Positions 10,921 through 36,436 of a stretch of DNA of 64,000 nt are shown here, piece by piece (position 1 is the first letter of the stretch; each line of letters opens with the position of its first letter). Under the pieces are notes generated by a model. It did no database searches. It worked only from the letters and a program-made list of their open reading frames with translations, and was not told the origin of the DNA. A program made the position numbers and the translations under genes. Source of the stretch: an uncultured Acidobacteriota bacterium. GTDB lineage: Bacteria > Acidobacteriota > Terriglobia > UBA7540. The stretch is from assembly GCA_963804995.1 (NCBI GenBank), contig CAWDSK010000005.1:576001-640000 (forward strand). Reading direction: 5' to 3'.

Positions 10921-11202
10921 ATGATTTCCGTGGGAGTGCGTGAGCTCAAGAACGGCCTAACCCGCTATCTGCGGCTGGTCGATCAAGGTCACGCGGTGCT
11001 GGTGATGAACCGCAATCGGGCGGTGGCGGTGGTGAAGAAGCCGGACCCCGACTCCGCGTCGACCCTCGAGGAAAGAATCGCCGCCTTGGTGGTGGAGGGA
11101 AGGTTGTTGCGGGCGGAAAAGGCCGGGCCTTGCCTACCGTTCAAACCGGTGCGCGTGAAAGGGAAGCCCGTCTCCAGACTGATTATTGAGGACCGGCGGT
11201 GA
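10921..11202 (+). CDS. Phd/YefM (prevent-host-death) family antitoxin
   Basis: MISVGVRELKNGLTRYLRLV signature; overlaps the toxin start (GTGA). Confidence 0.9.
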   Translation: MISVGVRELKNGLTRYLRLVDQGHAVLVMNRNRAVAVVKKPDPDSASTLEERIAALVVEGRLLRAEKAGPCLPFKPVRVKGKPVSRLIIEDRR

Positions 11203-11636
11203 TTTTCTTTGATGCCAGCGCCGCGGCCAAAAGATACTTCCAGGAAGCCGGCTCAGACCGGGTCATCCGCCTGTGGAGCGGCACGGAGTTCATCTTTTCG
11301 CTCGCCCTTCTGCCCTGCGAGCTCTTCTCCGCCTTGAATCGAAAACGCCGGGAGCGCGCCTTGCCTCGCGGGGCTTATCCTGCCCTCAAGAAGCAGATCC
11401 GGGAGGATGTGAGCAAGATCCACGCAGTACCCATCCATGCCGAACTCATCGAACTCTCCCTGCGCCTGCTGGATGCGCATCCGCTCAAGACCCTCGATTC
11501 GCTTTACCTGGCGGGGGCATTGGGTTTGCAGCAGGCCCTGAAGGAACCGGTCCTGTTTGTCGCCGCCGACCGGCAAATTCTTCAGGCCGCCCAAGCCGAA
11601 GGGCTGCGCACGCTGAATCCAGAAACTGGGCCCTGA
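11199..11636 (+). CDS. vapC: VapC PIN-domain toxin
   Basis: FFDASAAAKRYFQE, LKTLDSLYLA and FVAADRQ motifs. Confidence 0.9.
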   Translation: MIFFDASAAAKRYFQEAGSDRVIRLWSGTEFIFSLALLPCELFSALNRKRRERALPRGAYPALKKQIREDVSKIHAVPIHAELIELSLRLLDAHPLKTLDSLYLAGALGLQQALKEPVLFVAADRQILQAAQAEGLRTLNPETGP

Positions 11637-11938: not shown

Positions 11939-12220
11939 TTAGGTTGCAAGCTCACGAGAGCCGTGTTGCAGATGGAGAATTTCCACAAATTTAGGAGATT
12001 CGTTCACGCGGTAATATATCAAGATGGGGGTATGGATCAACTGGCGTACTCCTGGACGCCCCTTAACCAGGCTGCTGATGTAAGGGAAACTCTTGAGGAG
12101 CTCAATGTGATTAAGTATGGCGTCGCCGAACCGCTCGGCGCTGGCGGGAAAGTTGGCCCAAGAATAGGCGAGGATGAAAATCTGCTAACGCGGCTTCTGT
12201 GATTCGAATTTGGGAATCCT
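11939..12220 (-). pseudogene. RelE/ParE-family toxin, degraded 5' end
   Basis: Not in the ORF track. Manual translation: DSQIRITEAALADF / frameshift / ILAYSWANFPASAERFGDAILNHIELLKSFPY...VRQLIHTPILIYYRV...VEILHLQHGSR. No start codon. Confidence 0.8.
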
Positions 12221-12358
12221 GACGAGCTTCCGAACTTCATCGAGAGGCACGACCCGGCCCGCGTCGGCGTCAGCCGTACCGCGGTCGATCGCTGCCAGGG
12301 TCTTGGCGTCGACTTCAACTTCCTCGACGATGGGTACTTCCAGCTTGAGATCGGTCAT
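12185..12358 (-). CDS. Small acidic antitoxin of the ParE module (possibly slightly degraded)
   Basis: TLAAIDRGTADADAGRVVPLDEVRK, typical of ParD-like partners; overlaps the toxin. Confidence 0.7.
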   Translation of the reverse strand: MTDLKLEVPIVEEVEVDAKTLAAIDRGTADADAGRVVPLDEVRKLVRIPKFESQKPR

Positions 12359-12502
12359 ACCGTCACAGTACCCCAAGCTGGCGCAGAATGCAAACGCGGT
12401 AGGCGAAGAAAAGATTCACCACAGAGTGCCAGCCCACCGGTGGGCGGGTCCATAGTGGGGGAAACTTGAAGTTTCTGGAGAGGCGCAGAGTAAGAAAGAT
12501 GG

Positions 12503-12718
12503 TCATGGCTGGTGCTCATCATGGCGGGCAGCCACATCGGGTTCGCCGGATTGGTAGCGCTCTCCCAAAATGGCATAAATGCCGTCCAGTTGGCCATTAC
12601 GGTCTTCCGCTTGCGCAACCGGTCGCGGCTCAAACTCCACCTCAGTGCGCTCCGGCAGTTCGACCGTTTCCAGCGGTCGGAATACGCCGCTTTCATAAAC
12701 TGCATGGATCGTCTTCAT
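12503..12718 (-). CDS. AF2212-like (DUF104) antitoxin, orphan
   Basis: MKTIHAVYESGVFRPLETVELPERTEV signature; no intact PIN toxin follows. Confidence 0.85.
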   Translation of the reverse strand: MKTIHAVYESGVFRPLETVELPERTEVEFEPRPVAQAEDRNGQLDGIYAILGERYQSGEPDVAARHDEHQP

Positions 12719-20646: not shown

Positions 20647-23600
20647 CTACGGCGCCGTGGCGCACACGTAGCGGCGGCCACCGGCGACGGGTTTGAATTC
20701 GTACCATCCCGGTTTGGGCGAAGTGAAATCTACCTTGCCCAGGTTTTTGCCCTCCGGGTCATAGGCCATCACGCTGCTTACCTTGGGGGCGCGGAAAGCG
20801 ATGCGGTCGTTGCCGTATATATCAATCAATTCCCACAGGCCGTTGCCGGTATGGCGCAGGGCCACACTGCCGGTGGCTCCCAGGTTGCCGTTTTCGGTCC
20901 ACTGCCCGCGTCCATCGAGAAATTCATAGTCCGGCGCTTCGACCGCGTCAATGCGATGCCCGGCGAGGTTGGCCGATTCTTCGCGGAAATGGTTCTTGCC
21001 ATTGATTGCCAGCCATCCGGAAACCGGTAACTCCTGCACCGCGCCGGAGGAGTCAGTGACGGACCAGGCGCCGGCGGACGCACGGTTCACCCAGACTTCG
21101 GTTCCGTTTTCGTACGCCACGTGCAGGTGGCCCACCGCCTGAGCCCCGGTTGCCATCGCCTGGCTGGGGGTAAGGAACTTCCCCGAACCATCGGCGTATT
21201 CGATGGCTCTAGGTTCAGTGAAAGCATATTGCTGTTGTAACTGTTGCATCATGTAGTATGACCGTGCCAGGGCCTCGACATAGAAGGGCTCCGAGGAATC
21301 AAAATCGGTGGCCAGCCATCCCATGTTTCCATAGGCAATGGTCGTGGCCAGGAAAAGGTCAAGATATTCGCGCCTTTTCGGCGAGGTGGTCCAGTCCTTG
21401 TCCAACTGCCCCAGGTAGTAGCCGGTGTCGCCCATGCCGTAATCGCACTCCAGGGGCTGAATCTTCCGCAGCTTGAAGGAAACGTCCAGGGGTTCGGTCA
21501 GCAGGTTTGCCTTGGTGTAAACCCAGCCGTAGCTTCCCGACGTCAATCCCGCGTACATCCACTGGTACGTGCCCTCGGACTGGGTGGGTCCATAGACCTG
21601 CTGATCGTTGCGCAGCAATTGTCCGTAGGCATAAAACGTGGAGGCAAAAGTTCCCGCTCCCGGCACGCGCGCGTCGAAGTCACAATAATCCCACGGCGCA
21701 TTGGCGGTGTGCACGTCGGTGTAAGACATCTTCACGCCGAACTTCTCCTTGATGCGTGGGGCGTAGTAATCATCAAACTCCACCGCCTTGGCGGGCTTCT
21801 CGGCATAGTTGCGCGGCCAGGCGCGGCGCCATTCGCCCTCCGGGGTGCGCTGCACATGGTCCGGGTTCCAGTTTTCGTTGACCGTATTGAAGTCGCAGTA
21901 GTTGGAGTAAACGCCCTGCAGCCACCCCATGTCGTTCTGCGCCTGGATGTACCACTTCAGCATGGCATCGCCGCCCTTTTGCGGCGCCGCGTGGAGCTTC
22001 AGCGTGTTGCTGTCGCCCTCGTCGCGCCAGGTGACCTCGTGGCTATGCTGCATGACTTTGTCCAGACCATAGGCGCGAATACGCTGGCAGCGCTCGTGGT
22101 CGCGGACGAACGAGTCCGGCTCGGTCACGGTCCACACAACCTGCTTGCCCTCCGCCTGCCGAATCGAAGGGGGATTGGCCGGGGTGGGCAGCGTCTCCTC
22201 GTAATTGGGCGAATTGGTAATGAAGATCCTCTCGTAAAGGTTGTTGCGCAAACCGTCGGTCCTGGGCAGATAGCGCATTCCGCCGTTGATCTCCGCGCTA
22301 TCGCCGGTCACCTTCGGGTCGGCGGTGAAATAGGGTGCGGAGGCATTCGAGCGGTACCAATCGAACCAGATGGAGGTGAAGACGGAATGGGCCGCGTCGC
22401 CGGAGATCAGCACGCGCGGGTTGGTCGGTCCATAAGTGATGTAGGGGACGGTAATCAGCCGGGGGTGGGCGACGCCGGCGACATGTCCAAAACTCAGTTC
22501 GGTAGCTTCACCGCCTTCCGACCACGCGTTCGAGCACCAGAGACTTTTGCCACAAGCGCATCTGGTAATCCACTAACCGCGATCCCATACGAAAGCGCGC
22601 CTCGACGGCGTCGTTGGCCAGCGCGGCGGAAACCAGTTCACCCTCCGCCACGCTGCCCGACGCGGTGTCGACGAAGCGGACGCCACCGCCCTCGAGAGGC
22701 ACGAACGGCGCACCCCCATTGACGCGCACCGTCAACTCGCCCAGGCGGCCCCTGGCTGGGCGGTATTCGTAGGCGACCGTGCCATCCCGGCCGTCATAGC
22801 GCAGTTCGAAATGTCCCGGCCCGGCTTGCCGCACCACCACCTTGAAATCCTTTTCGAAATTCACCGGCAGGATTGTTTCCTCGCGCGTGGGGAATGGCAA
22901 CGTTCCCGCCCCGGTGTTGGTTCCCACCACTTCGCCGCGATAGGGTTTGAGATTCCGCTGGGGCTGAGGTTTGAAGGTGAGCGGCTTCAATTCTTCCGTG
23001 TAGAACGCTAACGAGTCACAGAAAAAGTAGCGAGCCTGCGGGTTCGCCGCGTTGCCGATTTCGATGCCGGAAAAGCGGGCCGGCAGGACGATTTGGGCCA
23101 GAATCTCGCGGGGGATGCGGCGATGAATCAGCCACCACTGCTTCCATTGGACGTTGGTGAGCTGAACGCGGAATTCCTTTCCCCGCGCATCCTGCAGCAG
23201 GACGGCAACCTCAGCGGGAGGCGTGGTCGCATCGGGCACCCAACTCCAGCGATTGCCATAGCCCCACAAATCAATCGAGTCGAAACTGCCGGGAATGGGG
23301 ACGGGCTGCGGCGGCCGGGCAATCACGTGGCTTTCCGCGCGCCCGCCGGAATAAACAATCTTGGCCACATACTCGCCCCACAACTGCTGCTCACGGCTGC
23401 GCCGCAATTCTCCCTGCGCACCGTCATGGAGTTCCAGGGTCCAGCCCTTGAGGTCTTGAAAATCCACAAGGGTGTGCGGGTCTTGCTGCCGCTCGGTCCA
23501 GGTGAATTCATAAGGCTGCTGCCCGACTTGCTGCCACGGTTCGATTTCATTGATGGCGGGGACAATATTCTGCTGGGCGAAGAGCCCGGCAGGAAGGAGT

Positions 23601-23653
23601 GCGAGGACGGACAGTATTACGATGAATCTGCGCATGGGTTTTGGAATCCTCAC
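20647..23653 (-). pseudogene. Large (about 1000 aa) secreted glycoside-hydrolase-like protein, single +1 frameshift at about 22529
   Basis: Removing one A from CTCGAACGCG gives LVLDAWSEGGEATELSFGHV...PRVLISGD, joining the 381 and 588 aa ORFs. Signal peptide present; YSNYCDF and YTDVHTA motifs. Confidence 0.7.
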
Positions 23654-25437: not shown

Positions 25438-26265
25438 TCAGCCACCCAGCAGCCCGTTGAGATGCTCGAGGCTGCGCGCGGCCTGGGGCTCGGTACCGCA
25501 CTCGACGGAGAGCACGCCGTTGAAGTTCGCGCCCCGCAAGATCGCAATGACGCGTTGCCAATCGATGACGCCATCCCCGCAGGCGCACCCTACTGGTGTC
25601 CCAGTCACCTTGCCGCGTTCCGCGTCCGCGTGCTCAAGAGTTATATCTTTGGCATGGACGTGCACCAGCAAGGCCGAAACAGCCTGCAGTCCCTCGTATG
25701 GGTCGCCGCCCGCCAGGTACACGTTGCCAGTATCGTAATTAACCCGTAAGAGCGGCGAATCCACCAGGCCCACGATCTTCTGTAATCCTTCCGTCGTACG
25801 GGAAATGCTCTGGTGAGGTTCAATGCCGATGAAAATGCCGTAGCGCTCGGCGGTTCGCAGCACCGTCGTGAGCGTGTACTTCATAACCTGAAAGGCTTCC
25901 TCCATGCTCACCCAGGCAGGGCGAATACCCTCATCGGTATTGACGACGGGCGCGCCGATAGCGGCGGCGAGGCGAATGGCCTTCTGCAAATACGGCACGC
26001 TGATTTCCGGCCGCATCAGCGGGCAATGCGCGCTTAAGCCGGAAGCCTTCACCCCGTTTTGATCGAGGATATCCTTCATTTCTCCGGGGTCGTCGTCGAG
26101 GGAGAAGGAGTGAAAATAGCCTGCCTCGCTCAGCAGTTCCCGCCCGTTGTGAACCATCGGCTCCACGTACTTGTAGCCCAGTTTCGCCGCTACCTCCACT
26201 CCGGTGGCAAACGGCTTGTCCTGCGACCGGATGAATTCCATGTTCACGCCGACTGCAATGCTCAT
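25438..26265 (-). CDS. Sugar phosphate isomerase/epimerase family protein
   Basis: IGIEPH, VNYDTGN, HVHAKD and GVLSVEC motifs; start overlaps the oxidoreductase stop. Confidence 0.9.
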   Translation of the reverse strand: MSIAVGVNMEFIRSQDKPFATGVEVAAKLGYKYVEPMVHNGRELLSEAGYFHSFSLDDDPGEMKDILDQNGVKASGLSAHCPLMRPEISVPYLQKAIRLAAAIGAPVVNTDEGIRPAWVSMEEAFQVMKYTLTTVLRTAERYGIFIGIEPHQSISRTTEGLQKIVGLVDSPLLRVNYDTGNVYLAGGDPYEGLQAVSALLVHVHAKDITLEHADAERGKVTGTPVGCACGDGVIDWQRVIAILRGANFNGVLSVECGTEPQAARSLEHLNGLLGG

Positions 26266-27449
26266 AAATCCCACTCCTTCTGCCAGGTCACCCGGCTTCG
26301 CTGTTTGTAGGCAATGTTGCCGATGTGGCAGGCCATCGCGGAATAGTGCCCATTCACCACGTCGGCGTTGGGCTGCTTGCGGCTGCGCACGCAATCCAGC
26401 CAATTGCTCATGTGCGTATCGTTCACTCCGGGCACAGAGACTTCGGGCACTTGCGGATTGCGTTTGCTGGGGATGAATTTGTAGCCGGAGCGGAAGATTG
26501 ACAGCCTACCCCCGGTGCCCAGGAAGACGATGTCCGCGCTGTCCCGGCCGTTCAAATCGGTGAGCGTAGCTTCAAACGTCACGTTGAGCTTCTCAGGGTA
26601 TTCCACGATGAAGTTGACGTTGTCGGGCGTGTCGCGTCCGTCGTCGTAAAGGTAAATCCCTCCGCCGGCCACGGCCGCCAGGGGACGCGTCAGATTCAGG
26701 AACCAGTGAACCACGTCGACCATATGCACGAACAGGCCGCCGGTCTGCCCGCCCGTGGAGAAATCCCAATAGGCGAAGCGGTTGAAATAGCGCTTGGGGT
26801 CCCAGGGGATTTTGGGAAGCCAGCCGAGGCAAGCGTCCCAGTCGAGCCCCGCCGGCTTCTGCTCCATTCCCGGTGGGGGCTGCGTCAAATAACCGCTGTT
26901 GGCGTTCCAGATGGTTCGGACCATGTTGACCGTGCCGATCAGTCCGGTATCGAAATACTTCTGCTTGGCTTCGGCAAAATGGGCCGTGCTGCGCTGCTGC
27001 ACTCCCACTTGCAGAATCCGGTTGTTTTCATGAACGGCCCGCACCAGGGGCGCCCCCTGCTCGGGCAGCGAGGTCATGGGCTTTTCAACGTAAACATCCT
27101 TGCCGGCTTTGCAGGCGTCGATGGATATCTGGGAATGCATGTGATCGAATGTCGCCACGATGACGCCGTCGATGTCCCGGCGATCGAGAAGTTGATGGTA
27201 ATTGGCGTACTTATCGACCTGCGTCTTCGCCACCAGTGCGGCTTGATCCCGCCGGGCGTCGTAGATGTCGGAAATCGCCACCCACTCAATGTTGCCGGCT
27301 TCGTTGGCCCGGGTCATCAGGTATTGCCCACGCTCGCCGGAGCCGATGATGCCGAGCCGGATGCGGTCGTTCGCCCCCCAAACGCGCAGGGCCGCAGCCG
27401 CGGTGGCCGCGCCGACCATAAAAGTTCTTCGGGAAATATGGTTTTTCAC
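26262..27449 (-). CDS. Gfo/Idh/MocA family oxidoreductase, Tat signal
   Basis: SRRTF signal; GIIGSGERG and VYVEKP motifs; GTG start with GGAGG RBS. Confidence 0.9.
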   Translation of the reverse strand: MKNHISRRTFMVGAATAAAALRVWGANDRIRLGIIGSGERGQYLMTRANEAGNIEWVAISDIYDARRDQAALVAKTQVDKYANYHQLLDRRDIDGVIVATFDHMHSQISIDACKAGKDVYVEKPMTSLPEQGAPLVRAVHENNRILQVGVQQRSTAHFAEAKQKYFDTGLIGTVNMVRTIWNANSGYLTQPPPGMEQKPAGLDWDACLGWLPKIPWDPKRYFNRFAYWDFSTGGQTGGLFVHMVDVVHWFLNLTRPLAAVAGGGIYLYDDGRDTPDNVNFIVEYPEKLNVTFEATLTDLNGRDSADIVFLGTGGRLSIFRSGYKFIPSKRNPQVPEVSVPGVNDTHMSNWLDCVRSRKQPNADVVNGHYSAMACHIGNIAYKQRSRVTWQKEWDL

Positions 27450-27636
27450 TTCGATAATCCTCCCTTGTCGGATATAAGGCGCTCCGTTATTACAGAGGCG
27501 GGGCGATGCGGGATCCTTAGCTTGCTTGGCGCTTCCTTCCTGGTCCTCAAGCGGGCAAAAGTATACACCTCGGGCGCCCGCTTGCACGTTTTTCTCCTAG
27601 GGAAGGGAAGTGAGTACCCTTTCCTCTCCGCACCGG

Positions 27637-27760
27637 GTAGCACAGGCACTCCTGCCTGTGAATGTGGCATGAGGTTCGAGCGTCAGGACACAGCCAGGAG
27701 TGGCTGTGCTACAACTAAGGCACTCAATCGCAGAGCGGGGCTCGCTCTGCGCCCGCCACC
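27637..27760 (+). repeat. Composite REP repeat R1 (one of four co-oriented copies)
   Basis: GTAGCACAGGCACTCCTGCCTGTG...CACAGCCAGGAGTGGCTGTGCTAC followed by a CGCAGAGC..GCTCTGCGCC hairpin. Confidence 0.9.
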
Positions 27761-27801
27761 GCTGCGCACGCGCAGCGCCCGCGCCAAAACCAAAACCCTT
27801 G

Positions 27802-28311
27802 CTAATCACCTTTGACGCGGAGACCGAAAGGGCGTGTAGGCCCTTGGGTTTGCGGAGTTGTGAGAGAAATCGTGTAGAGAGCGGTGGACCCTGAGGCGAT
27901 TCCTGTCCCCAGTCCATGCATGACATTGGCAGCCGCATCGAGGTTGGTCAAAGTCTGCGGCGGCCCAAGGCTACCTGAAAGGTTGGATCTGAGGCTGACC
28001 GAAATATCGCCCACATCGTCCTGCGAAACGGAGATTCCAATAGCGTCGTACATTTGCAAGGAGTAGATCGTACTGGGCGGGTTAGTGATCAAGGTGCGGC
28101 CCATCAGCCTCGCTTCGAATGCAATGGGGCACACGAACGCGGCGGGCGGGCCTGGTTGATAAACAAGGGGGCCCGAGGCATAAGCAACCGTCCCCGCCAT
28201 TTCATTCGACGTGAGGCTCACATTCACGGTGACGTACATTGGTGGAGTTAGGTCTCCATATAGCTGGGCCGCGGTTTGGAACAAATCGGAAAAGTAAGTA
28301 AAGTCTCCCAT
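27802..28311 (-). CDS. Hypothetical protein (orphan-like, beta-rich)
   Basis: AAGGAGG RBS; 169 aa ORF between R1 and R2; no recognisable motif. Confidence 0.65.
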   Translation of the reverse strand: MGDFTYFSDLFQTAAQLYGDLTPPMYVTVNVSLTSNEMAGTVAYASGPLVYQPGPPAAFVCPIAFEARLMGRTLITNPPSTIYSLQMYDAIGISVSQDDVGDISVSLRSNLSGSLGPPQTLTNLDAAANVMHGLGTGIASGSTALYTISLTTPQTQGPTRPFGLRVKGD

Positions 28312-28640
28312 TGTAGCTAGCCTCCTTAGAAGAATCGCAGCACACAGCCATCAGGAAATTTAACTAACTTTCTATTTCTCAGTATTGACTCTCTTACACC
28401 TCATGTCAATGGCAGCGCCAAAGGTGGCCAAGTGGCGTCGATGTGGCCCCGTACTCAGCTTTGAGCCTTTCCTTTCTTTTGCGGCTCCCACTCTATGTTT
28501 GTTCCGCGCCCCCCGCCGCTTGCAGCCACAAGCGGCGCGGGGTGCGGATCACGAAAATTATCTGGAACGTCTTGTAACGGCGGGGCTGAAGCCCCGCCCT
28601 TCCGGCAGCCCCCAACACCCTTTAAGCGTGGTGAGAAATC

Positions 28641-28762
28641 GCACAGGCACTCCTGCCTGTGACTGCAGGAATAGGTTCGAGCGTAGGGACACAGCCAGGA
28701 GTGGCTGTGCCATCGCTAGGGCTTACCGGGAAGCGGGCTGGCTCGCCCTGCGCCAGCCACCC
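28641..28762 (+). repeat. Composite REP repeat R2
   Basis: Same core as R1. Confidence 0.9.
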
Positions 28763-28856
28763 GAAAGGACCGAAGTTTCCCCCACCACCGGTTGACACCA
28801 GCGCAGTAGGGCCATAACATTCAAATCACTTGGGGACCCTTACAGGGAGGTGCACT

Positions 28857-30086
28857 ATGATTTCGCGCAGACAATTATTGAGTATGGGCGCCGCGGGATT
28901 AATCCTGCCTTGCAACTCGCGCGCGGCAAGCGGCAACTCTCACTTCTCCGAGGTCGAGCGGCGCATTGCCCACCACGACTTCCGCGGCCTCACCAAGGAG
29001 GACTTGGCCACCCCTTGCCTGATTCTTGAAGAGGCGCTTTTCAAAAAGAATCTTGAAACGATGGCTGCCAGCAACCAAGCCTTAGGCATCAAGCTGCGCG
29101 CCCACCTGAAGGTCCACAAGTGTCCTCAGATTGCCAAACAGCAACTCGCGCTGGGCGCCATCGGGATTTGCTGCGCCACCACCGCCGAGTGTGAGCTCAT
29201 GATGAACGCCGGAATTCATGGAGTCTTCCACTCCTGTCAGCCGGCGGGCCGGAACCAGGTCGCACGAGCCGTGGCTCTGGCGCGCCGCGACCGTACGTTT
29301 ATTGGCGTGCTGGACAACCCGCTCACGGTGGATACCCTGGAGCAGGCGTTGGCTGCGGCTCGCGTGCAGATGAGAGTTTGCGTAGACATTTTCGCAGGCA
29401 TGACGCGCCAGGGGTCGGAACCGGGTGAGCCCGCCCTGCGCCTGGCACAGAAGGTCGATCAGTCGAAACAACTCAAGCTGGTCGGCCTGATGAGCTACTC
29501 GGGCGAAGCCTCCCACACCCACGGGTGGGAGACCCGCCGCAAAAAGTCTGAGGAGCACTTGGCAGGCGCGGTCGCAACCGAGGCGCTCTGCCGAAAATCC
29601 GGGCTGCCCATCGAAATCCGAGCCGGTGGCAGCACCGGAACATACAACATCGACAAGGCGAATGGCCTCACGGAACTCCAGGCCGGCTCCTACGTTTTCA
29701 TGGACACCATCTACCGCAAGATTGGCGGGAAGGCTGACCCGAGCGTTTACACTGATTTCGAACCGGCTCTCACCGTAATGACCACTGTCATCAGCAAGAC
29801 TCATTCCAACCAGTGCGCCGTTGATTACGGCAACAAAGCCACGCTCCGTACCACGGACGAGGTTAAGGGCCGGCCGGGCGTGCGGGTCGAGTCGGGCGGC
29901 GCCGAATACGGCATCTTGCTGTGGAACGAGGGTGATCGCGACATCAAGCTGGGCGAGCTGGTTGAGATCTACCCCTCGAACCTCAACACCAGCGTCAACG
30001 CCTTCGATCGCATCTATGTGGCCCGTGGCGATTCCATCGTCGACGTGTGGCCCATCATGGGCCGCAGCGGTTCCCCGCAACGCTGA
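28857..30086 (+). CDS. DSD1/D-threonine aldolase family PLP enzyme (alanine racemase fold), Tat-like signal
   Basis: LATPCLIL, LRAHLKVHK, GGSTGT and ELQAGSYVFMD motifs; promoter TTGACA-17-TAACAT at 28792-28820. Confidence 0.9.
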   Translation: MISRRQLLSMGAAGLILPCNSRAASGNSHFSEVERRIAHHDFRGLTKEDLATPCLILEEALFKKNLETMAASNQALGIKLRAHLKVHKCPQIAKQQLALGAIGICCATTAECELMMNAGIHGVFHSCQPAGRNQVARAVALARRDRTFIGVLDNPLTVDTLEQALAAARVQMRVCVDIFAGMTRQGSEPGEPALRLAQKVDQSKQLKLVGLMSYSGEASHTHGWETRRKKSEEHLAGAVATEALCRKSGLPIEIRAGGSTGTYNIDKANGLTELQAGSYVFMDTIYRKIGGKADPSVYTDFEPALTVMTTVISKTHSNQCAVDYGNKATLRTTDEVKGRPGVRVESGGAEYGILLWNEGDRDIKLGELVEIYPSNLNTSVNAFDRIYVARGDSIVDVWPIMGRSGSPQR

Positions 30087-30192
30087 TGCGATATCGCTTT
30101 TAAGCTGGGAACGAACCTGCGTCGCATGGCGCGAAGTCCTTTAGCGCACCAGAGTCAGGCGCAGTTTGTTCTAATCTGCGCCAGCCGGCGGG

Positions 30193-30317
30193 AGCACAGG
30201 CACTCCTGCCTGTGAATGCGGCGCGAGGTTCGAGCCTAACGACACAGCCAGGAGTGGCTGTGCTGCAACTACGGCACTAAACCGCAGATCTGGGCGCGCT
30301 CTGCGCCAACCCACCCG
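30193..30317 (+). repeat. Composite REP repeat R3
   Basis: Same core; closest to R1. Confidence 0.9.
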
Positions 30318-30386
30318 TCGTTTGCCTGAGAGATTGACGGGGGGCGCGCATTCGTTTATATTCGTTATGTATACAAATGACGGAGC

Positions 30387-30641
30387 ATGATCATGGCTAA
30401 AACACTGACCATGCGGCTGGACGAAAAAACCTATGAGACTTTTGTCCGAGCCGCCCAAGCCGAACGGCGGTCGCTCTCGAACCTGGTTGAAACCGCGGCG
30501 CTGCGGCAGATCCAGGAAAGCCACTTCGTTGACAACGCGGAGATGGCGGAGATCGTCTCACGGCCTGGGCTCGTGAAGCGTCTCAAGGCGGGTTCCCGGG
30601 ATGCCCAAAGGCGAAGAGGCAGGTTCGTTCCAGCCGTTTAG
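30387..30641 (+). CDS. CopG/RHH antitoxin
   Basis: KTLTMRLDEKTYETFVRAAQAERRSLSNLVE; promoter TTGACG-17-TATATT at 30334-30362. Confidence 0.85.
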   Translation: MIMAKTLTMRLDEKTYETFVRAAQAERRSLSNLVETAALRQIQESHFVDNAEMAEIVSRPGLVKRLKAGSRDAQRRRGRFVPAV

Positions 30642-30909
30642 AGTATTCGAAACGCGGCGCTTCCTCGCCGATCTCGCCATCCTGGGAAGCGTTGCACAGA
30701 AGCGGCTTGAAGCCAAGCTGCGTGATTACGTTTACCCCATACTTCGCCAAGCCCCTCACTCCGGCTCGAATATCAAGCGACTGAAGAATTGGGACCCACC
30801 GACTTGGCGCTACCGAGTGGGAGATTGGCGCTTCTTTTACGAGATCGACGAGAGACAGCGCATCGTTTTCATGATCGCCGCCGATCACCGCAAAGAAGCC
30901 TATCGCTGA
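30601..30909 (+). CDS. relE: RelE/ParE family toxin
   Basis: NIKRLK...WRYRVGDWRFFYEID...ADHRKEAYR; true start uncertain. Confidence 0.9.
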   Translation: MPKGEEAGSFQPFRVFETRRFLADLAILGSVAQKRLEAKLRDYVYPILRQAPHSGSNIKRLKNWDPPTWRYRVGDWRFFYEIDERQRIVFMIAADHRKEAYR

Positions 30910-30924
30910 GGCCACAACTGCGCG

Positions 30925-31070
30925 GTAGCACAGGCACTCCTGCCTGTGACTGCGGGGCGAAGTTCGAGCGCGCCGAAACAGCCAGGAGTGGCTGTGCCGC
31001 AGCCAGGGTTTGCCGGGAAGCGGACCGGCTGGCTGGCAAATCGCAGGGCTGGGTTCGCTGTGCGCCACCC
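30925..31070 (+). repeat. Composite REP repeat R4
   Basis: Same core; closest to R2. Confidence 0.9.
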
Positions 31071-31191
31071 GGCTGAAGTCACACCCGACCAACGAAGAGC
31101 CGCAGAGTCTCGGAAGGCACGCCGCTCTGCGCTGCTCCTCGTTACCTGCTGAGTTGTAAGTATACCCATTTGGATATATTATGGGAAACGC

Positions 31192-31560
31192 ATGGAGGAA
31201 TCCCCCAAGCTTAGGCGCCTGCATTGGGTAGGGAGCAGCAAGAAGGACTTGCTGGCGCTCCCTGAAGACGTAATTGATGTTTTCGGTTATGCCCTTTACC
31301 TGGCACAAATCGGCAGAAAACATTCCCAAGCCAAGCCGCTGAAGGGATTTGGGTCGGCCGGCGTATTAGAGATCGTAGAGGACTGGGAGGGGAGCACCTA
31401 TCGAGCCGCGTATACCGTGCGTTTTGATCGTGCTATCTACGTCCTTCATGTATTTCAGAAGAAAGCCAAACGCGGCATTGCCACGCCCAAGTCCGATCTG
31501 GATTTAATCCGGCGCCGACTGAAGGTCGCCGAGCTGGCTGCCAAGGAGTTGGAATCATGA
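31192..31560 (+). CDS. higB: RelE/HigB-like toxin (phage Gp49/DUF891 type)
   Basis: WVGSSKKDL, KPLKGFG..GVLEI and YVLHVFQKK motifs; toxin-first gene order. Confidence 0.9.
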   Translation: MEESPKLRRLHWVGSSKKDLLALPEDVIDVFGYALYLAQIGRKHSQAKPLKGFGSAGVLEIVEDWEGSTYRAAYTVRFDRAIYVLHVFQKKAKRGIATPKSDLDLIRRRLKVAELAAKELES

Positions 31561-31910
31561 AAAGGCAAAGAAACATCGGAGACGTTGGTGTCCAGGAGGG
31601 CAGTGGGAATGTTTACGCTGACTTGGGCTACTCCGATTCTGAGGACATGGCCGTGAAAGCGCAACTGGTCACCAAGATTGCCGACATCATCCGCGAGCGT
31701 GGCCTCACCCAAGAGGAAGCGGCAAAGGTCTTGCGCTTGACCCAACCCAAGATTTCGAAGCTACTCAAAGGGCAGTTTCGGGGAATTTCAGAGCGCCGCT
31801 TGCTCCGCTGCCTGACAAAACTCGGGAGGGACGTCGAGATCGTCGTGAAACCGGCCCCGCGACGGCGCCCTGGCAGGTTGACACTTCTCTTCGCCGCAAC
31901 CGCTCGATGA
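31557..31910 (+). CDS. higA: XRE-family HTH antitoxin (HigA-like)
   Basis: GSGNVYADLG, LTQEEAAKVL.LTQPKIS and LGRDVEIVV motifs. Confidence 0.9.
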   Translation: MKRQRNIGDVGVQEGSGNVYADLGYSDSEDMAVKAQLVTKIADIIRERGLTQEEAAKVLRLTQPKISKLLKGQFRGISERRLLRCLTKLGRDVEIVVKPAPRRRPGRLTLLFAATAR

Positions 31911-32058
31911 GTGAGCGGCTTTCCTGGGTCGCGAGGAGCGGACCGCTGTTGGGGCAGGCTGGCGCAGACCCCAAAAGGCGCGGTCCTGCGCCAGCCTGCG
32001 TTTGAGAATTGTAAACATATGTCTCATAATGCTGGCGTCTTGCCGCCCCGAGGTGTGT

Positions 32059-32730
32059 ATGCAGCTTTCAGAATGGCAGAAGATCCTTATCACATCTCTT
32101 GCAAGTTTTTCTGTAGGTGTACTCGCTGAACCGATCAAACTGTGGCTCTCTGAGAATTACAAGAAACGTAAGCTGCGCAGGCTGTGCTACGAACGAGTGC
32201 TTATAGTTCGGGATGCTCTAAGCACCGTCCTTAAAGCCCTCAAAGAGCCTGACAAGAAGTTTGGGTACACGAGAACTGGCAAAGAATTCGCGCTTCTGAT
32301 GGTTCCCAACCTGGATATAGCAATACTCAAGAATGCAGTCGAGAAGGAAAGCTCAATCTTATGTCAGCTTGATATTGCCCGAACCGTTCGTAACATTGTC
32401 AGCTCTCTAGAAGAGATCAAGAGCGATACGTCACTTGAAGAAATGCAGAGGGTAGCCCAAGCAATCATTGCCAACATCGACATGGAGGTCGATTGGAATC
32501 GTATCAGCGGAGAATACCTCACCGATATAGCATTCGGGATGGACTGGGAGCAACATAAACTGTTCGACTGGAGGATGCCCCGAGACTTGGATTTACGCAA
32601 ATGGGGTTATAAAGACGAATCCCTTCGCCACAAGGTTTTCGTCCTCCGCCCACTTTTCGCGCGCATTGTTTCGCGGATCAGGCATATACGGAATTACACG
32701 CGGGTCAGGCCGAGATCCTTAAATCCATAG
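32059..32730 (+). CDS. Hypothetical protein with an N-terminal hydrophobic helix
   Basis: Long ORF, visibly lower in GC than the backbone, preceded by a REP hairpin at about 31953-32000. Confidence 0.65.
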   Translation: MQLSEWQKILITSLASFSVGVLAEPIKLWLSENYKKRKLRRLCYERVLIVRDALSTVLKALKEPDKKFGYTRTGKEFALLMVPNLDIAILKNAVEKESSILCQLDIARTVRNIVSSLEEIKSDTSLEEMQRVAQAIIANIDMEVDWNRISGEYLTDIAFGMDWEQHKLFDWRMPRDLDLRKWGYKDESLRHKVFVLRPLFARIVSRIRHIRNYTRVRPRSLNP

Positions 32731-32783
32731 ACTTATCCCCACTCTTGCGCTTCCCCGCGAATCGCTTACTCTGAAATTAACGC

Positions 32784-32981
32784 ATGGCTCAGTCCATCAC
32801 GATAGACATCATTCACAAGCATCTTGAATCCGACCGCCGGTGGCGGGAGCGGTGGCACGTCCAATGGGCGCAGAATTACGACCTCTACTGGGACACCGTC
32901 ATCATCAACCGGCATACGCAGCGGCGGGGTGGCACAAAGCGAGCGCAGCACTGGGATTTAGTCAAGCCAGGCGGTACCTAG
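32784..32981 (+). pseudogene. Short ORF, probably an N-terminal fragment truncated by a repeat
   Basis: Protein-like for about 48 aa, then reads into a degenerate copy of the repeat seen at 33206-33335. Confidence 0.4.
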
Positions 32982-33364
32982 TCGAGACGGACGAATCGTT
33001 CCGATAATAGAAACGGATGCCTGTTCCATAGATCGGTATCATAGAGATATCGGCGGGCATGGCCAGGGTGAAGCGCAGAGCTGGGCTCGCTCTGCGCCAG
33101 CCAAGTGGCCGCTCAAGTGAGCCTTCGAAATGCATCACTTAGCAGAGTGGCTCAGATCACTGAAAAGAGAAACTGTACCAGCGCTTCTTCTTTTCTTCGG
33201 CATTGGCAGGCTGGCGCAGGGCGAGCGCAGCCCTGCGATTTAGTGCGAAGCAAGCCGGCCGGTCCCTGGTCAAGCTGGATGAATCGTCCCGATAATAGAT
33301 TCGGAAGCCTGTTCCGCAGATCGGCATCATAGGGAAATTGGGGGGCAGGGTCCGACATGAGCAA

Positions 33365-33530
33365 GTAGCCACGGTCACTGCTTTTGTGACCGTGGGCTTT
33401 CCCCTCGATGACGCAGGGATTGACCCGAGCTTATCAAAGCCTATCGCGGCACGGTCGTGTTGCCCTTTGAACCGGGCAAGTACAGCCGCGTTGCTGTTAA
33501 GATAGTAGGCGACAAGGGTTTTGAAAGCCG
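33365..33530 (+). repeat. GTAG-REP plus 3' end of a DNA methyltransferase gene, copy 1 (degenerate)
   Basis: Homologous to 34289-34466. Confidence 0.75.
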
Positions 33531-33718
33531 CAAGCGCGGACCTTTTCCTCAAGCTCGGCGGCTCTTCTTGCGGACCGTGCCCAAGTGCCGCGGACTCGCA
33601 GACGCGCTACGCCCGCTGACCCACTAGCAGCTTACCGGCTGAAGGGCGCAAGAAGCAAACCGGCGTTAGGATCGTGGTAGTAACGGTTTACATATTTTAT
33701 TTCTGAAGGAGGAGGGAG

Positions 33719-33943
33719 ATGCGCATCAGTTATGACGGCGAAGTGGACGCGCTCTATATTCGCTTGCTGGAGGGCAAATACCAGTGCCGCACGCTGCGGA
33801 TGACGGACGAAGTGAGTTTGAACATCGGCCCCGGCGAAGAACTGGTGGGCATCGAGGTCCTGGACGCCACGGACGTATTGGGCAAGGGCTCGCTTCCGAC
33901 CGTCGTCCTGGATAACGTTCTCGCTGTGGAGGGCGGAACTTAA
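33719..33943 (+). CDS. DUF2283 domain protein (putative antitoxin), preceded by a 3' remnant of its partner
   Basis: MRISYDGEVDALYIRL...LVGIEVLDA. Upstream RIVVVTVYIFYF* (ending about 33705) resembles a DUF4258-type toxin C-terminus. Confidence 0.85.
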   Translation: MRISYDGEVDALYIRLLEGKYQCRTLRMTDEVSLNIGPGEELVGIEVLDATDVLGKGSLPTVVLDNVLAVEGGT

Positions 33944-34040
33944 CCAAAATTTTGGCAACCCTTACCGGCGCCAGCAAAACCGGAATCCCACCTTCCTGCG
34001 CGCAACCCACGCTGTAATAAAAATACCTGCGCCGTAGGCG

Positions 34041-34150
34041 CTTTGGAGTGCGGTCGCAGCAGCTACCGCCTTCCGTCTTTGCTCCATAGGGGAATCACCC
34101 TATGGCCAGAAGGAGAAAAGCGGTAGCTGCTGCGACCGCACTCCAAAGCG
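34041..34150. repeat. TTTGGAGTGCGG...CCGCACTCCAAA REP doublet
   Basis: Long inverted repeat; same family as the core of the 270 bp direct repeats. Confidence 0.85.
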
Positions 34151-34288
34151 CTGCGCGCATTTTCATCAGCAGTGCCGTGGCGAAGGCTCATGGGCGTCTG
34201 TGCGGTGCTGCATTTCAACCCCCGCCGCGCCGGGACTTGCCAAAAGCGCTCGCTGCTCACTGCCTACTGTTTTCCGAAGCGGATTCCA

Positions 34289-34466
34289 GCAGCCACTGCT
34301 TTTGCGACCGTGGGTTTTTCCCTCGATGACGCGGAGATTGACCCGGAGCTTGCCAAAGCCTATCGCGGCACAGTCTTGTTGCCCTTTAAACCGGGCAAGC
34401 ACAGGCGCGTTGCTGTTAAAATACTAGGCGACAGGGGTCTTGAGAGCCTAAAGGTTGTGGAGGTGA
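34289..34466 (+). pseudogene. REP plus C-terminal fragment of a type III (Mod-like) DNA methyltransferase, copy 2
   Basis: AEIDPELAKAYRGTVLLPFKPGKHRRVAVKILGDRGLESLKVVEV resembles, from recall, the conserved C-terminus of Mod-like adenine MTases. Confidence 0.7.
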
Positions 34467-34467
34467 T

Positions 34468-34894
34468 TTGGTGGGCGGAAACGGGACCAAGTTACTTGAC
34501 ATAACGGGGGAAGTCCTGGAAGCGGACGTCAAGGAGAGGCAATTTCAGCTCTGGACTGACGAATCCAATCATGTTTCAGTGAGCTTCCGGGAATCCGAGG
34601 AAGCGGATGTTACCACCGCGCTCAAGGACCACAAGGTCGTGCGCATCCGTGTAAAAGGGTGGGGTGAGATCGCGCCGAACGGCAAGCTGTTAAGAATCAC
34701 GCAAAGTGGAAGAGTTGAGCCTACAACCGGTGAGCGAGATCCCCATTGATCGCGCCGCGCGACCGATTGAGGAGATCATTCGAGAGTTGGCGGCGGAGGT
34801 TCCGCAAGCCGAATGGGACAGGCTGCCGCATGACCTGACGGATAACCTCGATCACTATCTGTACGGAACACTTCCCCGTATCGGTTATCGGTAG
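34468..34894 (+). pseudogene. Fragment of an antitoxin-like protein, frameshift at about 34703
   Basis: Two ORFs joined by removing one A. The C-terminal EWDRLPHDLTDNLDHYLYG motif is typical of PIN-toxin partners. No clear start. Confidence 0.55.
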
Positions 34895-35567
34895 GCTCGA
34901 ACGCCGAGGATGAGTCAAATTGATTGGCCCGTTACAAGCAGCGTAACCCCTCACCCGTCCCGCGCCGGCTGGTGAAAACACCGGCCGCGGTCCACCCTCT
35001 CCCCTCGGAGAGGGCTGTGAACTCTCGCCTTGCGCTGATGAACCGGTAGCCCAATTCCCCAACCGACCCCGCAGCCCGCCGTGACACACTGCACAAGCAG
35101 TGACCAGTGACGAGTGACAAGTGACGAGAAAGACCCAATATCCAAGCCGGGCAGGGGGATAGCGCCGACGGCCAAACTCCGCCAGGACACACTCCCCCAT
35201 ATCGATTATCGGCAGTGTCGGGTCAGAAGAGGAATCCAATGCTGACTTCGAAAATCGCAAATCACGCATCGCAATTCGCAAATGAGCCCCTCACCCGATC
35301 ACCGGATCACTCGATTGCCCACCCCCGCCGGGACACACTCCCCCGTATCGGTTATCGGCAGGCTCGAACGCCGAGGATGAGTCAAATTGAGTGGCCAGTC
35401 ACAAACACCTTGACCCCTCACCCGCCTGCGGGCCGAAGCCGACCCCATTTACGGTTCCCATGGGACCCTTCGGTGGGCGTAGGCCCGTCCCGCACCGGCT
35501 GGTGAAAACGCCGACCGCGGTCCACCCTCTTCCGCCGCGGCGGATTCTGCCGACCCCTCAGAGGGCT
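34868..35567. repeat. Duplicated composite repeat (ACACTCCCCCGTATCGGTTATCGG... plus CCCTCACCC REP) with 7- and 8-mer tandem repeats between copies
   Basis: 34868-35015 matches about 35334-35567; partial third copy at about 35188; AGTGAC-type heptamers at 35098-35127. Confidence 0.8.
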
Positions 35568-35704
35568 AGGTTAACGCTTAGGGGCCTTTGGCCGGGGCTG
35601 TGGCAGGTAGGCTCATGCGGAACCCTTCGAGCCACTGATTAACACTGGTCAGCACGGATAATTCCTCTATTTTGATCCGCGCGAATCGGCGTTAATCTGC
35701 GGCC

Positions 35705-36436
35705 TTGCCTTTCGGCAAAAACGCGCGCATTCAATTGGAACACGGAGGGGAGAACGAATCTTCTGAACATTATGAGACCGTGGCCTATTGGTACGGATTG
35801 CCCAGTCCTTCCCTGATTAAGACGGACACGTTGAGCGTGGGTGACCCTGTCAGTGAGAGGGCTCATGCGTATTCATCGCCCGAGGCGAGTGAGCCTGTTG
35901 AGATAACCTCGCGCTATGAATGGGGAGTCGATCATTTGGAGGGGAAGGAAATTTATCCGGCGCACACCGAGGTGGGCCGCTCGACGACAGGCACCTCCGA
36001 ATTCACGCTGAAACTCGCGGCAGATAATCTTGGCGTTATGTTGCGCCGGACGCTCAACTACTCTTTTCCCAATCAACGGGCAGAGGTTTTTGTGGCGAGA
36101 GCCGCGGGAACCTCGCACCCTGGGGCCCCCGATCAGTGGAAGCTCGCGGGCATCTGGTATCTCGCCGGATCAAATTCCTGGATTCACTCCGATCCGAATC
36201 CGTAGTTGGCACCGACCGGGCATAAGATCGAAACTTCCAATCGGCGCTTCCGGGATGATGAGTTTCTTATGGGGCGCGACCTCACCCAAGGACGGTCGGC
36301 GATCCGAGTGAGAGTTCACTTCACGCCGGTTAACATCCCGCTGTTTCCCGGCGCACCGACTCAGAAGCACGCTTGGAGCGAAATCCGCTACTCGGCTTAC
36401 TGCATCGTGATGCCTTTATTCCAAGCGCCTGGTTAG
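35705..36436 (+). pseudogene. 3' fragment of a DUF2961-like protein with an in-frame TAG at 36203
   Basis: PFGKNARIQLEHGGEN...YETVAYWY motif. The two ORFs are in one frame, separated by a single stop; the 5' part is missing. Confidence 0.7.

Follow-up and report, generated by a model that had tools for sequence, protein, structure and literature searches.

A 64,000-nt window from the genome of an uncultured Acidobacteriota bacterium contains a locus (27,637-31,910) in which four composites of repetitive extragenic palindromes (REPs) alternate with small gene modules, and with a probability of about 0.5 we read it as an island of accessory genes that lies in a hotspot of exchange seeded by REPs. 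The window corresponds to C5:576001-640000 of the focal genome G000 (7.55 Mb, 9 contigs, 92% complete); G002, G005, G008, G013, G017 and G039 are related genomes, and L labels denote individual loci. In such a hotspot, REP-associated tyrosine transposases (RAYTs) acting in trans on single-stranded DNA (ssDNA) would place REP copies in spacers and within other REPs, often together with adjoining DNA. RAYT nicks near the REP feet, together with homology between the 150-450-bp spacers, would make these spacers exchange points at which modules may be gained, lost and reordered, and toxin-antitoxin (TA) modules would accumulate because they are small, have their own promoters and resist loss. Neither a dedicated integrase nor a set site of recombination is part of this scheme, and the repeat family involved may vary. 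The REP spacing suggests a route for the movement of TA genes around chromosomes.

A sequence-only reading of the window had described an integron-like cassette array delimited by four directly repeated palindromic composites of two alternating subtypes. All four repeats (R1-R4) were recovered on the plus strand, with starts at about 27636, 28637, 30190 and 30924 and 66-88% identity over 118 nt, and the alternation of subtypes holds as well (identity 0.84 for R1-R3 and 0.73 for R2-R4). Each repeat folds well as ssDNA (z -3.0 to -4.8) and joins two families that are each dispersed genome-wide, namely family A (~76 nt), a doublet of two inverted GTAG-footed hairpins, and family B (~33 nt), a second REP hairpin fused behind it. 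Extra repeat families sit within the intervals (28585-28638 and 31075-31135), and the repeat-rich island extends to ~35.6 kb. The repeat elements of the array are the following:

27637..27712, plus strand: R1, family-A REP doublet composed of a GTAG-hairpin, a 28-nt spacer and an inverted hairpin-CTAC (alignment and fold)
27726..27758, plus strand: family-B REP, resembling the right end of the B-RAYT unit (repeat search)
28500..28638, no strand: other hairpin and repeat elements outside family A, comprising a palindrome at 28500-28551 and an element at 28585-28638 with up to 5 further copies
28641..28760, plus strand: R2, A doublet with degenerate feet and a B-like REP
30191..30314, plus strand: R3, A doublet (GGAG and CTGC feet) and a B REP
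30925..31071, plus strand: R4, A doublet (GTAG 15 nt past the RelE stop), an insert and a B REP
31075..31135, plus strand: degenerate REP of a third family with up to 19 other copies, resembling the REP that flanks a RAYT at G000:C2:304788

Only R1 retains intact feet on both sides (GTAG and CTAC). The 5' feet have decayed to ATCG in R2 and GGAG in R3, and the 3' feet to CCAT in R2, CTGC in R3 and CCGC in R4; owing to this decay, the focal array is probably no active shuffling device now. The B REP of R3 ends in a CCAC foot 19 nt ahead of the next -35 box, and a B-like hairpin remnant lies just upstream of R3 (~30156-30189). Rfam families had no match in positions 26500-36000 of the window.

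Each repeat interval holds one module, in agreement with the sequence-only reading. By Pfam, the modules are an orphan, a pyridoxal 5'-phosphate (PLP) enzyme, an antitoxin-like gene with a ParE/RelE toxin, and a HigB-like gene with a helix-turn-helix (HTH) gene. The modules and the conserved gene to their left are listed below (ORF, open reading frame):

26262..27443, minus strand: Gfo/Idh/MocA oxidoreductase (GFO), first gene of a conserved three-gene operon, the left anchor
27802..28311, minus strand: orphan ORF of 169 aa, with a promoter-like site at 28409-28381 on the minus strand
28782..30105, plus strand: PLP-enzyme module (promoter-like site 28792-28820, gene 28857-30086), delimited by the extent of homology to the 88% identical copy at L333
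30324..30924, plus strand: antitoxin-like ORF (30387/30393-30641) and RelE/ParE toxin (30601-30909), with a promoter-like site at 30334-30362
31149..31926, plus strand: HigB-like gene (31192-31560; Gp49) and HigA-like HTH gene (31557-31910; HTH_37), with a promoter-like site at 31154-31182

At least two of the modules had been credited with their own sigma70 promoters, and a sigma70-like site was found in all four (6 found vs 1.2 expected). The repeat composites had also been called co-oriented, which is correct. The modules are not co-oriented, since the minus strand carries the orphan together with its promoter, both aimed at R1. Two modules show the architecture of type II TA systems, with small overlapping genes, a toxin family and an own promoter (a ParE_toxin pair and a Gp49 + HTH_37 pair), and as judged from sequence they are predicted type II toxin-antitoxins. 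The former had been labelled RHH-RelE; the toxin part of this label agrees with Pfam (ParE/RelE), whereas the antitoxin-like ORF has no Pfam match above the cut-off, only sub-cut-off matches to DUF6364 and DUF6290, and its label as a ribbon-helix-helix (RHH) protein is tentative. The PLP enzyme matches Ala_racemase_N and D-ser_dehydrat, corresponding to a D-threonine aldolase/DSD1-like fold, with BhcC below the cut-off.

The proposed mobility of the modules is well borne out, as copies of RHH-RelE, PLP and HigBA recur elsewhere with other neighbours. We used a comparison set of 28 congeners that are 83-91% identical to G000 in protein. In 16 of these genomes RHH-RelE occurs in a total of 19 additional copies, two of them partial and none with the focal neighbours, and the homology spans from just before the -35 box to just past the stop codon. 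For HigBA, the genus contains four more complete copies, all without family A. The PLP gene has one match in the congeners at E<=1e-100 and 13 metagenome loci. Its closest copy, L333 (88% DNA identity), aligns over exactly 28782-30105 and lies directly behind an AbrB/VapC-like pair, with a REP of another family 26 nt past the stop; PLP homologues at 63-74% identity show no flank homology. Two further TA modules likewise keep the core and change both flanks. The homology extents of RHH-RelE, HigBA and PLP indicate that the unit of movement runs from promoter to stop and does not, as a rule, include family A. The notion that A defines the cassette was rejected, given that orthologous modules mostly occur without A.

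The genes next to the GFO operon differ in each of nine related loci. Homology to the congeners upstream of the GFO gene stops near 27612, ~25 nt short of R1, and the spacer at this position carries family A in G000, other REP-like hairpins in G008 and G013, and none in G017 and G002. Synteny did not resolve the breakpoints themselves, because the congeners are too distant in protein and the neighbours of the operon differ throughout. The HigBA module (31149-31926) lies downstream of the GFO operon in G013 and G008 (L279:4470-5188 and L290:8406-9052), but at the upstream end in the focal genome, and in all three its orientation is opposite to that of the operon; this shift suggests, from position in the sequences, a local move or a circular permutation.

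The sequence-only reading had asked whether gene gain and loss break at the GTAG of the repeats. This is the case for one focal boundary, where the RHH-RelE homology extends to the GTAG of R4, but not for the others, most of which lie within ~10-25 nt of some REP. The PLP homology begins 21 nt past R2 and stops 85 nt short of R3 (itself 104 nt past the PLP stop), and the third REP family precedes HigBA. Of the 10 RHH-RelE copies that are closest, five have a CYAC foot 13-19 nt upstream of the -35 box, and the hairpin that backs the foot is different in every one; in four, a GTRG foot lies 13-15 nt past the stop, where the hairpin bodies beyond also differ. Of 12 copies of a second module, five have the foot upstream of the -35 box at a distance of exactly 13 nt. 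Different REP families adjoin the same module end. Across G000, a GTRG hairpin occurs 4-20 nt past the stop in 10 of 106 TA blocks vs 50 of 1694 large blocks (p 0.002); genes beyond the listed ORFs were called by a hexamer gene finder, so that the block limits are approximate.

The strongest form of the predicted organization, REP-delimited TA arrays with reordered modules, was confirmed in congeners with the same REP family. In G005, locus L067 has six co-oriented A-doublet spacers of 220-280 bp that enclose five TA modules, one per interval; it was oriented via its spacer flanks, the orientation of the near-symmetric A2 subtype being unreliable by hidden Markov model (HMM). Similar arrays are present at L075 (G013), L068 and L083 (G017), L070 and L072-L074. 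When module clusters were defined at 70% identity or more, the same modules recurred in different orders across arrays, often with the downstream spacer retained. The array spacers are 77-93% identical to each other and include pieces captured from the ends of genes, for example a higA 3' end. Among 13 exact doublets in G005, 11 have a Pfam TA gene within ~700 nt, one has a GNAT gene and one has neither. A collection scan for the doublet, with 62 loci listed and 62 of 88 neighbouring small proteins scanned, omitted seven loci that are near-duplicates of arrays already analysed; of the 62 loci listed, 10 have a member of a TA family no more than 700 nt from the doublet.

The 250-bp spacer of L067 (L067:3961-9200) is itself a repeat, and it flanks a MNT-HEPN pair at G000:C6:480409-481051. 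The latter copy has no A doublet upstream and a different REP family downstream, which indicates that REPs are nested in a longer element. The inner spacer of the doublet is inverted in two of the six L067 copies.

These arrays invite a more specific alternative, in which a dedicated integron-like RAYT system would cut at C|YAC in two successive doublets, free a module with its downstream doublet as an ssDNA circle and rejoin it at another C|YAC foot without the integron integrase IntI. We regard this as a tentative possibility, doubtful on the present evidence. The one-module-per-interval arrays of G005 (L067) and G013 (L075), the 11 of 13 G005 doublets beside TA genes, the reordering of modules with their downstream spacers, and the CYAC and GTRG feet close to the ends of about half of the closest RHH-RelE copies, with a comparable foot before some copies of the second module, all speak for it. 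So does biochemistry: according to PMC3333891 and PMC8266576, other RAYTs bind the GTAG hairpin in ssDNA and perform strand exchange in vitro, and in one RAYT a GTGG guide directs cleavage at CC. PMC3333891 further reports cleavage and joining of ssDNA by TnpAREP, both inside the CTAC foot and at CT sites on either side of the REP, up to >400 nt away, an activity that also speaks for the hotspot reading. On the other side, the feet that copies have in common are inherited by descent, so that the counts are not independent events, and the long, similar array spacers also permit homologous recombination; the data allow a cassette model but do not separate it from the latter. An E. coli mobilome study (10.1101/2024.07.17.603846) saw no REP circles, with a library chemistry that may miss ssDNA. 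In two peat read runs (0.06 word share), a search at 85% gave short contigs of other organisms, whose joints connect repeat to repeat and therefore provide no evidence of circles. A more general proposition is that REP doublets serve the RAYTs of Terriglobia in the manner of attC sites, at which modules with their own promoters (TA pairs and enzymes such as the PLP enzyme) would be cut out and inserted again, making integrase-free arrays; for this our expectation is similarly low. The integrase-free shuffling put forward in the sequence-only reading is partly supported, and its support comes from the congener arrays and the mobile modules. It fares worse at the focal locus, where only one boundary coincides with an A foot, the feet of R2, R3 and R4 are damaged, no cognate A-RAYT was found in the 92%-complete genome and the repeat subtype is not TA-linked elsewhere. 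The focal array is a poor example of a cassette model; if the model were true, this locus would be an older, decaying array, and the arrays of G005 and G013 the better examples.

Several observations also weigh against the hotspot reading. A third, older module (71-77% identity, 11 copies) has no fixed feet. The upstream-foot test was not significant genome-wide (7/29 vs 23/136, p 0.43), and the wrong-orientation control past the stop was also raised (17/106 vs 176/1694, p 0.075). Selection on the functional core alone could produce sharp module ends. Only 4 of 38 ParE matches in G005 have a doublet within 1 kb, and family A is nearby for only 9 of 134 TA markers in G000. Finally, no module exchange was seen between strains, the comparisons being between congeners.

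The association of the GTAG-type REPs with RAYTs rather than with attC sites, as earlier suggested, is supported by RAYT (HUH Y1) genes flanked by family A, by others flanked by family B, and by the lack of attC cores. HMM searches of G000 gave 51 hits for family A and 111 for family B, dispersed over the genome, and no hits on the reversed genome. A query with both A and B matched 21 of the 28 congeners, and the records that share the repeat are mostly titled Acidobacteriota or Terriglobia. With a GTAG-type foot, an inverted hairpin pair, many intergenic copies and a RAYT flanked by the same REP, the focal repeats are REP doublets as defined in PMC3333891, PMC3733652 and PMC6006769, whose supplements may list this family. 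Family B flanks two RAYTs in G000 (C2:467514 and C3:777593) that are 93.7% identical and score above the NF047646 cut-off, and the genome contains about a dozen end-joined copies of the B-RAYT unit without the gene interior. In contrast to the domesticated E. coli REPtron, the B-RAYT is therefore not a single-copy, non-transposing gene, having two copies and internally deleted derivatives that resemble miniature inverted-repeat transposable elements.

Family A flanks a different RAYT family, at loci L130, L193 and L202 and in genomes G002, G008 and G039. Y1_Tnp is above the cut-off in the A-RAYTs of L130 and L193, while NF047646 stays below it for A-RAYTs (60-62 of 80 bits). At E<=1e-20, A-RAYTs were detected in four of 29 genomes (G002, G008, G039 and G005), the gene in G005 being flanked by a different REP; at this threshold none was found in the 92%-complete G000. 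In total, G000 has 14 Y1_Tnp matches, most with their own hairpin family. Flank capture is visible at L130, which has 170-bp repeats of the RAYT 3' end plus doublet, and at L068, where the higA 3' end plus doublet is repeated. The A-RAYT genes of G008, G002 and G039 (L293:1288-2025, L292 and L294) hold REP doublets of their own within the coding region, and the frame of the G008 gene is open over 245 aa. In G000, one higA gene (L300:1461-1870) has a single A doublet behind it and is 90% identical to the G039 higA (L294), downstream of which are other REPs and then a whole A-RAYT unit; comparison of the two sequences makes loss of the RAYT from G000 beside higA possible. Copies of A also adjoin a 478-aa ORF found in several places (G000:C6:2168388-2170641 and C9:29369-29775), and one viral contig contains an A doublet (L341:3001-3075).

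An attC site is a palindrome bounded by an inverse core, RYYYAAC, and a core, GTTRRRY. A divergent attC array, of the kind known as a cluster of attC sites lacking integron-integrases (CALIN) and served by an integrase elsewhere, would account for a geometry and TA cargo that resemble those of integron arrays. Nevertheless, no RYYYAAC...GTTRRRY pair is present in any of the four repeats on either strand, none of 12 TIGR02249 matches is above the cut-off in the 92%-complete genome (the best hit being XerD), and the repeat is found on the flanks of RAYT genes and scattered over the genome, mostly beside ordinary genes. The RAYT linkage largely refutes this explanation, which we judge highly improbable. 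What the focal locus and its relatives do have in common with integron arrays and CALINs is the periodicity of modules and palindromic repeats, a TA-rich cargo with own promoters, reordered modules and an ssDNA hairpin substrate; they differ in having no IntI, no attC cores, a repeat that is not restricted to arrays, several repeat families at the same module end and modules in both orientations.

We compared the distribution of family A in G000 with a TA marker set of 134 genes from eight Pfam families, a minimum for the genome. Of the 46 A loci, eight have a marker no more than 1 kb away (2.6-3.1 expected), and with the focal copies removed the number is 6 of 42 (2.4-2.8 expected, p 0.03-0.06). 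By subtype, four of six A2 copies are within 1.2 kb of TA, as are 4 of 38 copies of the focal subtype A1; two of the latter are focal, which leaves 2 of 34 elsewhere, close to the background of ~6%. The genome-wide map does not support the expected TA enrichment of the focal repeat subtype, whose non-focal copies stand beside ordinary genes. Family A is clustered (13 pairs <10 kb apart vs 2.7 expected), and all but one of 17 pairs of neighbours point the same way. The copies are equally co-oriented in a cluster of four on C3 that lies among ordinary genes. Clustering and co-orientation are therefore traits of the propagation of A and by themselves imply no cassettes, and the idea that co-orientation implies cassettes was rejected on this ground. 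Replichore bias as a cause of co-orientation was uninformative on these contigs (21 of 35 copies agree in orientation with the local GC skew). One A copy of the focal subtype on C3 lies between arsC-like and pdxT-like genes that are adjacent in 21 of 28 congeners, in 19 with <230 nt between the matches. Here A was inserted without exchange of genes, which also counts against the dedicated RAYT system. Two of the refuting outcomes named in the sequence-only reading are partly observed, namely repeats spread beside ordinary genes and a gene order that is conserved around a repeat.

A further explanation is co-location only, with REPs and accessory modules both gathering in dispensable spacers, modules arriving by illegitimate recombination or insertion sequence (IS) activity, and REPs remaining passive; the locus would then be an ordinary mosaic island. 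We consider this rather unlikely. It is in line with the repeated 18-mer held by about half of the G000 spacers >150 nt, with the background TA frequency of the focal subtype, with the PLP copy at L333, which abuts the VapC stop codon with no REP upstream, and with several RHH-RelE copies that lack a foot at either end. It is at odds with the strict one-module-per-doublet arrays of several genomes, with module-spacer junctions conserved in shuffled arrays, with homology that stops at the foot and gives way to different REP bodies, and with the 10 loci, out of 62 listed in the collection scan, at which the doublet has TA genes next to it.

The closest known systems are REP doublets forming hairpins (REPINs) and bacterial interspersed mosaic elements (BIMEs) with their RAYT (TnpAREP). 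PMC3333891, PMC6006769 and PMC3733652 describe the same GT(A/G)G foot 5' of the hairpin, inverted doublets with a variable spacer, intergenic dispersal, a class-2 RAYT (NHVH, Y---NP) flanked by the same REP, and clusters that repeat flanking DNA. The system reported here differs by its Acidobacteriota host, many REP families side by side, a hybrid A+B composite, and doublets that punctuate TA-module arrays in congeners. E. coli also has spacers in which REPs and TA modules meet: ccd at folA-apaH, whose integration mechanism is called unelucidated in PMC7167474, and hicAB replacing the REPtron (PMC3333891 and PMC6006769). There, TA genes and REPs share plastic spacers as alternative occupants of single sites, while the arrays described in this work contain several modules and the two take turns. 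IS200/IS605 elements and their non-autonomous derivatives share the HUH Y1 chemistry and internally deleted copies with both ends, but the ends in our case are REPs reused genome-wide, and the cargo modules have no constant end pair.

Our literature search met no description of REP-punctuated TA arrays, its coverage being partial and thus no proof of absence; the accessible part of PMC5581495 contains nothing on TA linkage. The movement and integration of chromosomal TA genes is stated to be unresolved in PMC7167474, and the host role of RAYT-REP systems is called open in 10.1101/2024.07.17.603846. The arrays link these two questions and make both testable in vitro, since they provide named substrates, enzymes and a predicted cut position. 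If the cassette reading were true, RAYT-REPIN systems would have a function at the level of the host, and the mechanism still lacking for the mobility of chromosomal TA genes would be theirs. The significance of the present observations lies in the congeneric arrays and the testable mechanism more than in the focal locus.

The remaining features concern the orphan gene and the wider window. The orphan ORF at 27802..28311 has no Pfam match and a single homologue at 40% identity, with none found among 200 other genomes of the class; its structure model was unusable (predicted local distance difference test 33, built from 2 sequences), and its best Atlas score of 0.79 is a lead only. To the right of the stretch covered by the sequence-only reading, the island continues with the following elements:

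32059..32730, plus strand: low-GC (0.48) orphan ORF of 223 aa, with a B-like hairpin (31954-31999) and a promoter-like site upstream
32923..33102 and 33205..33350, minus strand: two internally deleted family-B RAYT units, with REP ends fused to the first and last transposase codons

Other TA-like or DUF2283 modules occur in spacers without family A at positions 1394-2049, 10921-11636, 12032-12718 and 33719-33943 of the window. Two ORFs of 588 and 375 aa (20647-23635) correspond to a single 995-aa gene in G013, with a frameshift near 22530-22550 that is either a sequencing error or the mark of a pseudogene. Further captured gene ends are seen in two similar fragments at 33359-33530 and 34294-34470, each behind a hairpin repeat and presumably derived from the 3' end of a DNA methyltransferase gene.

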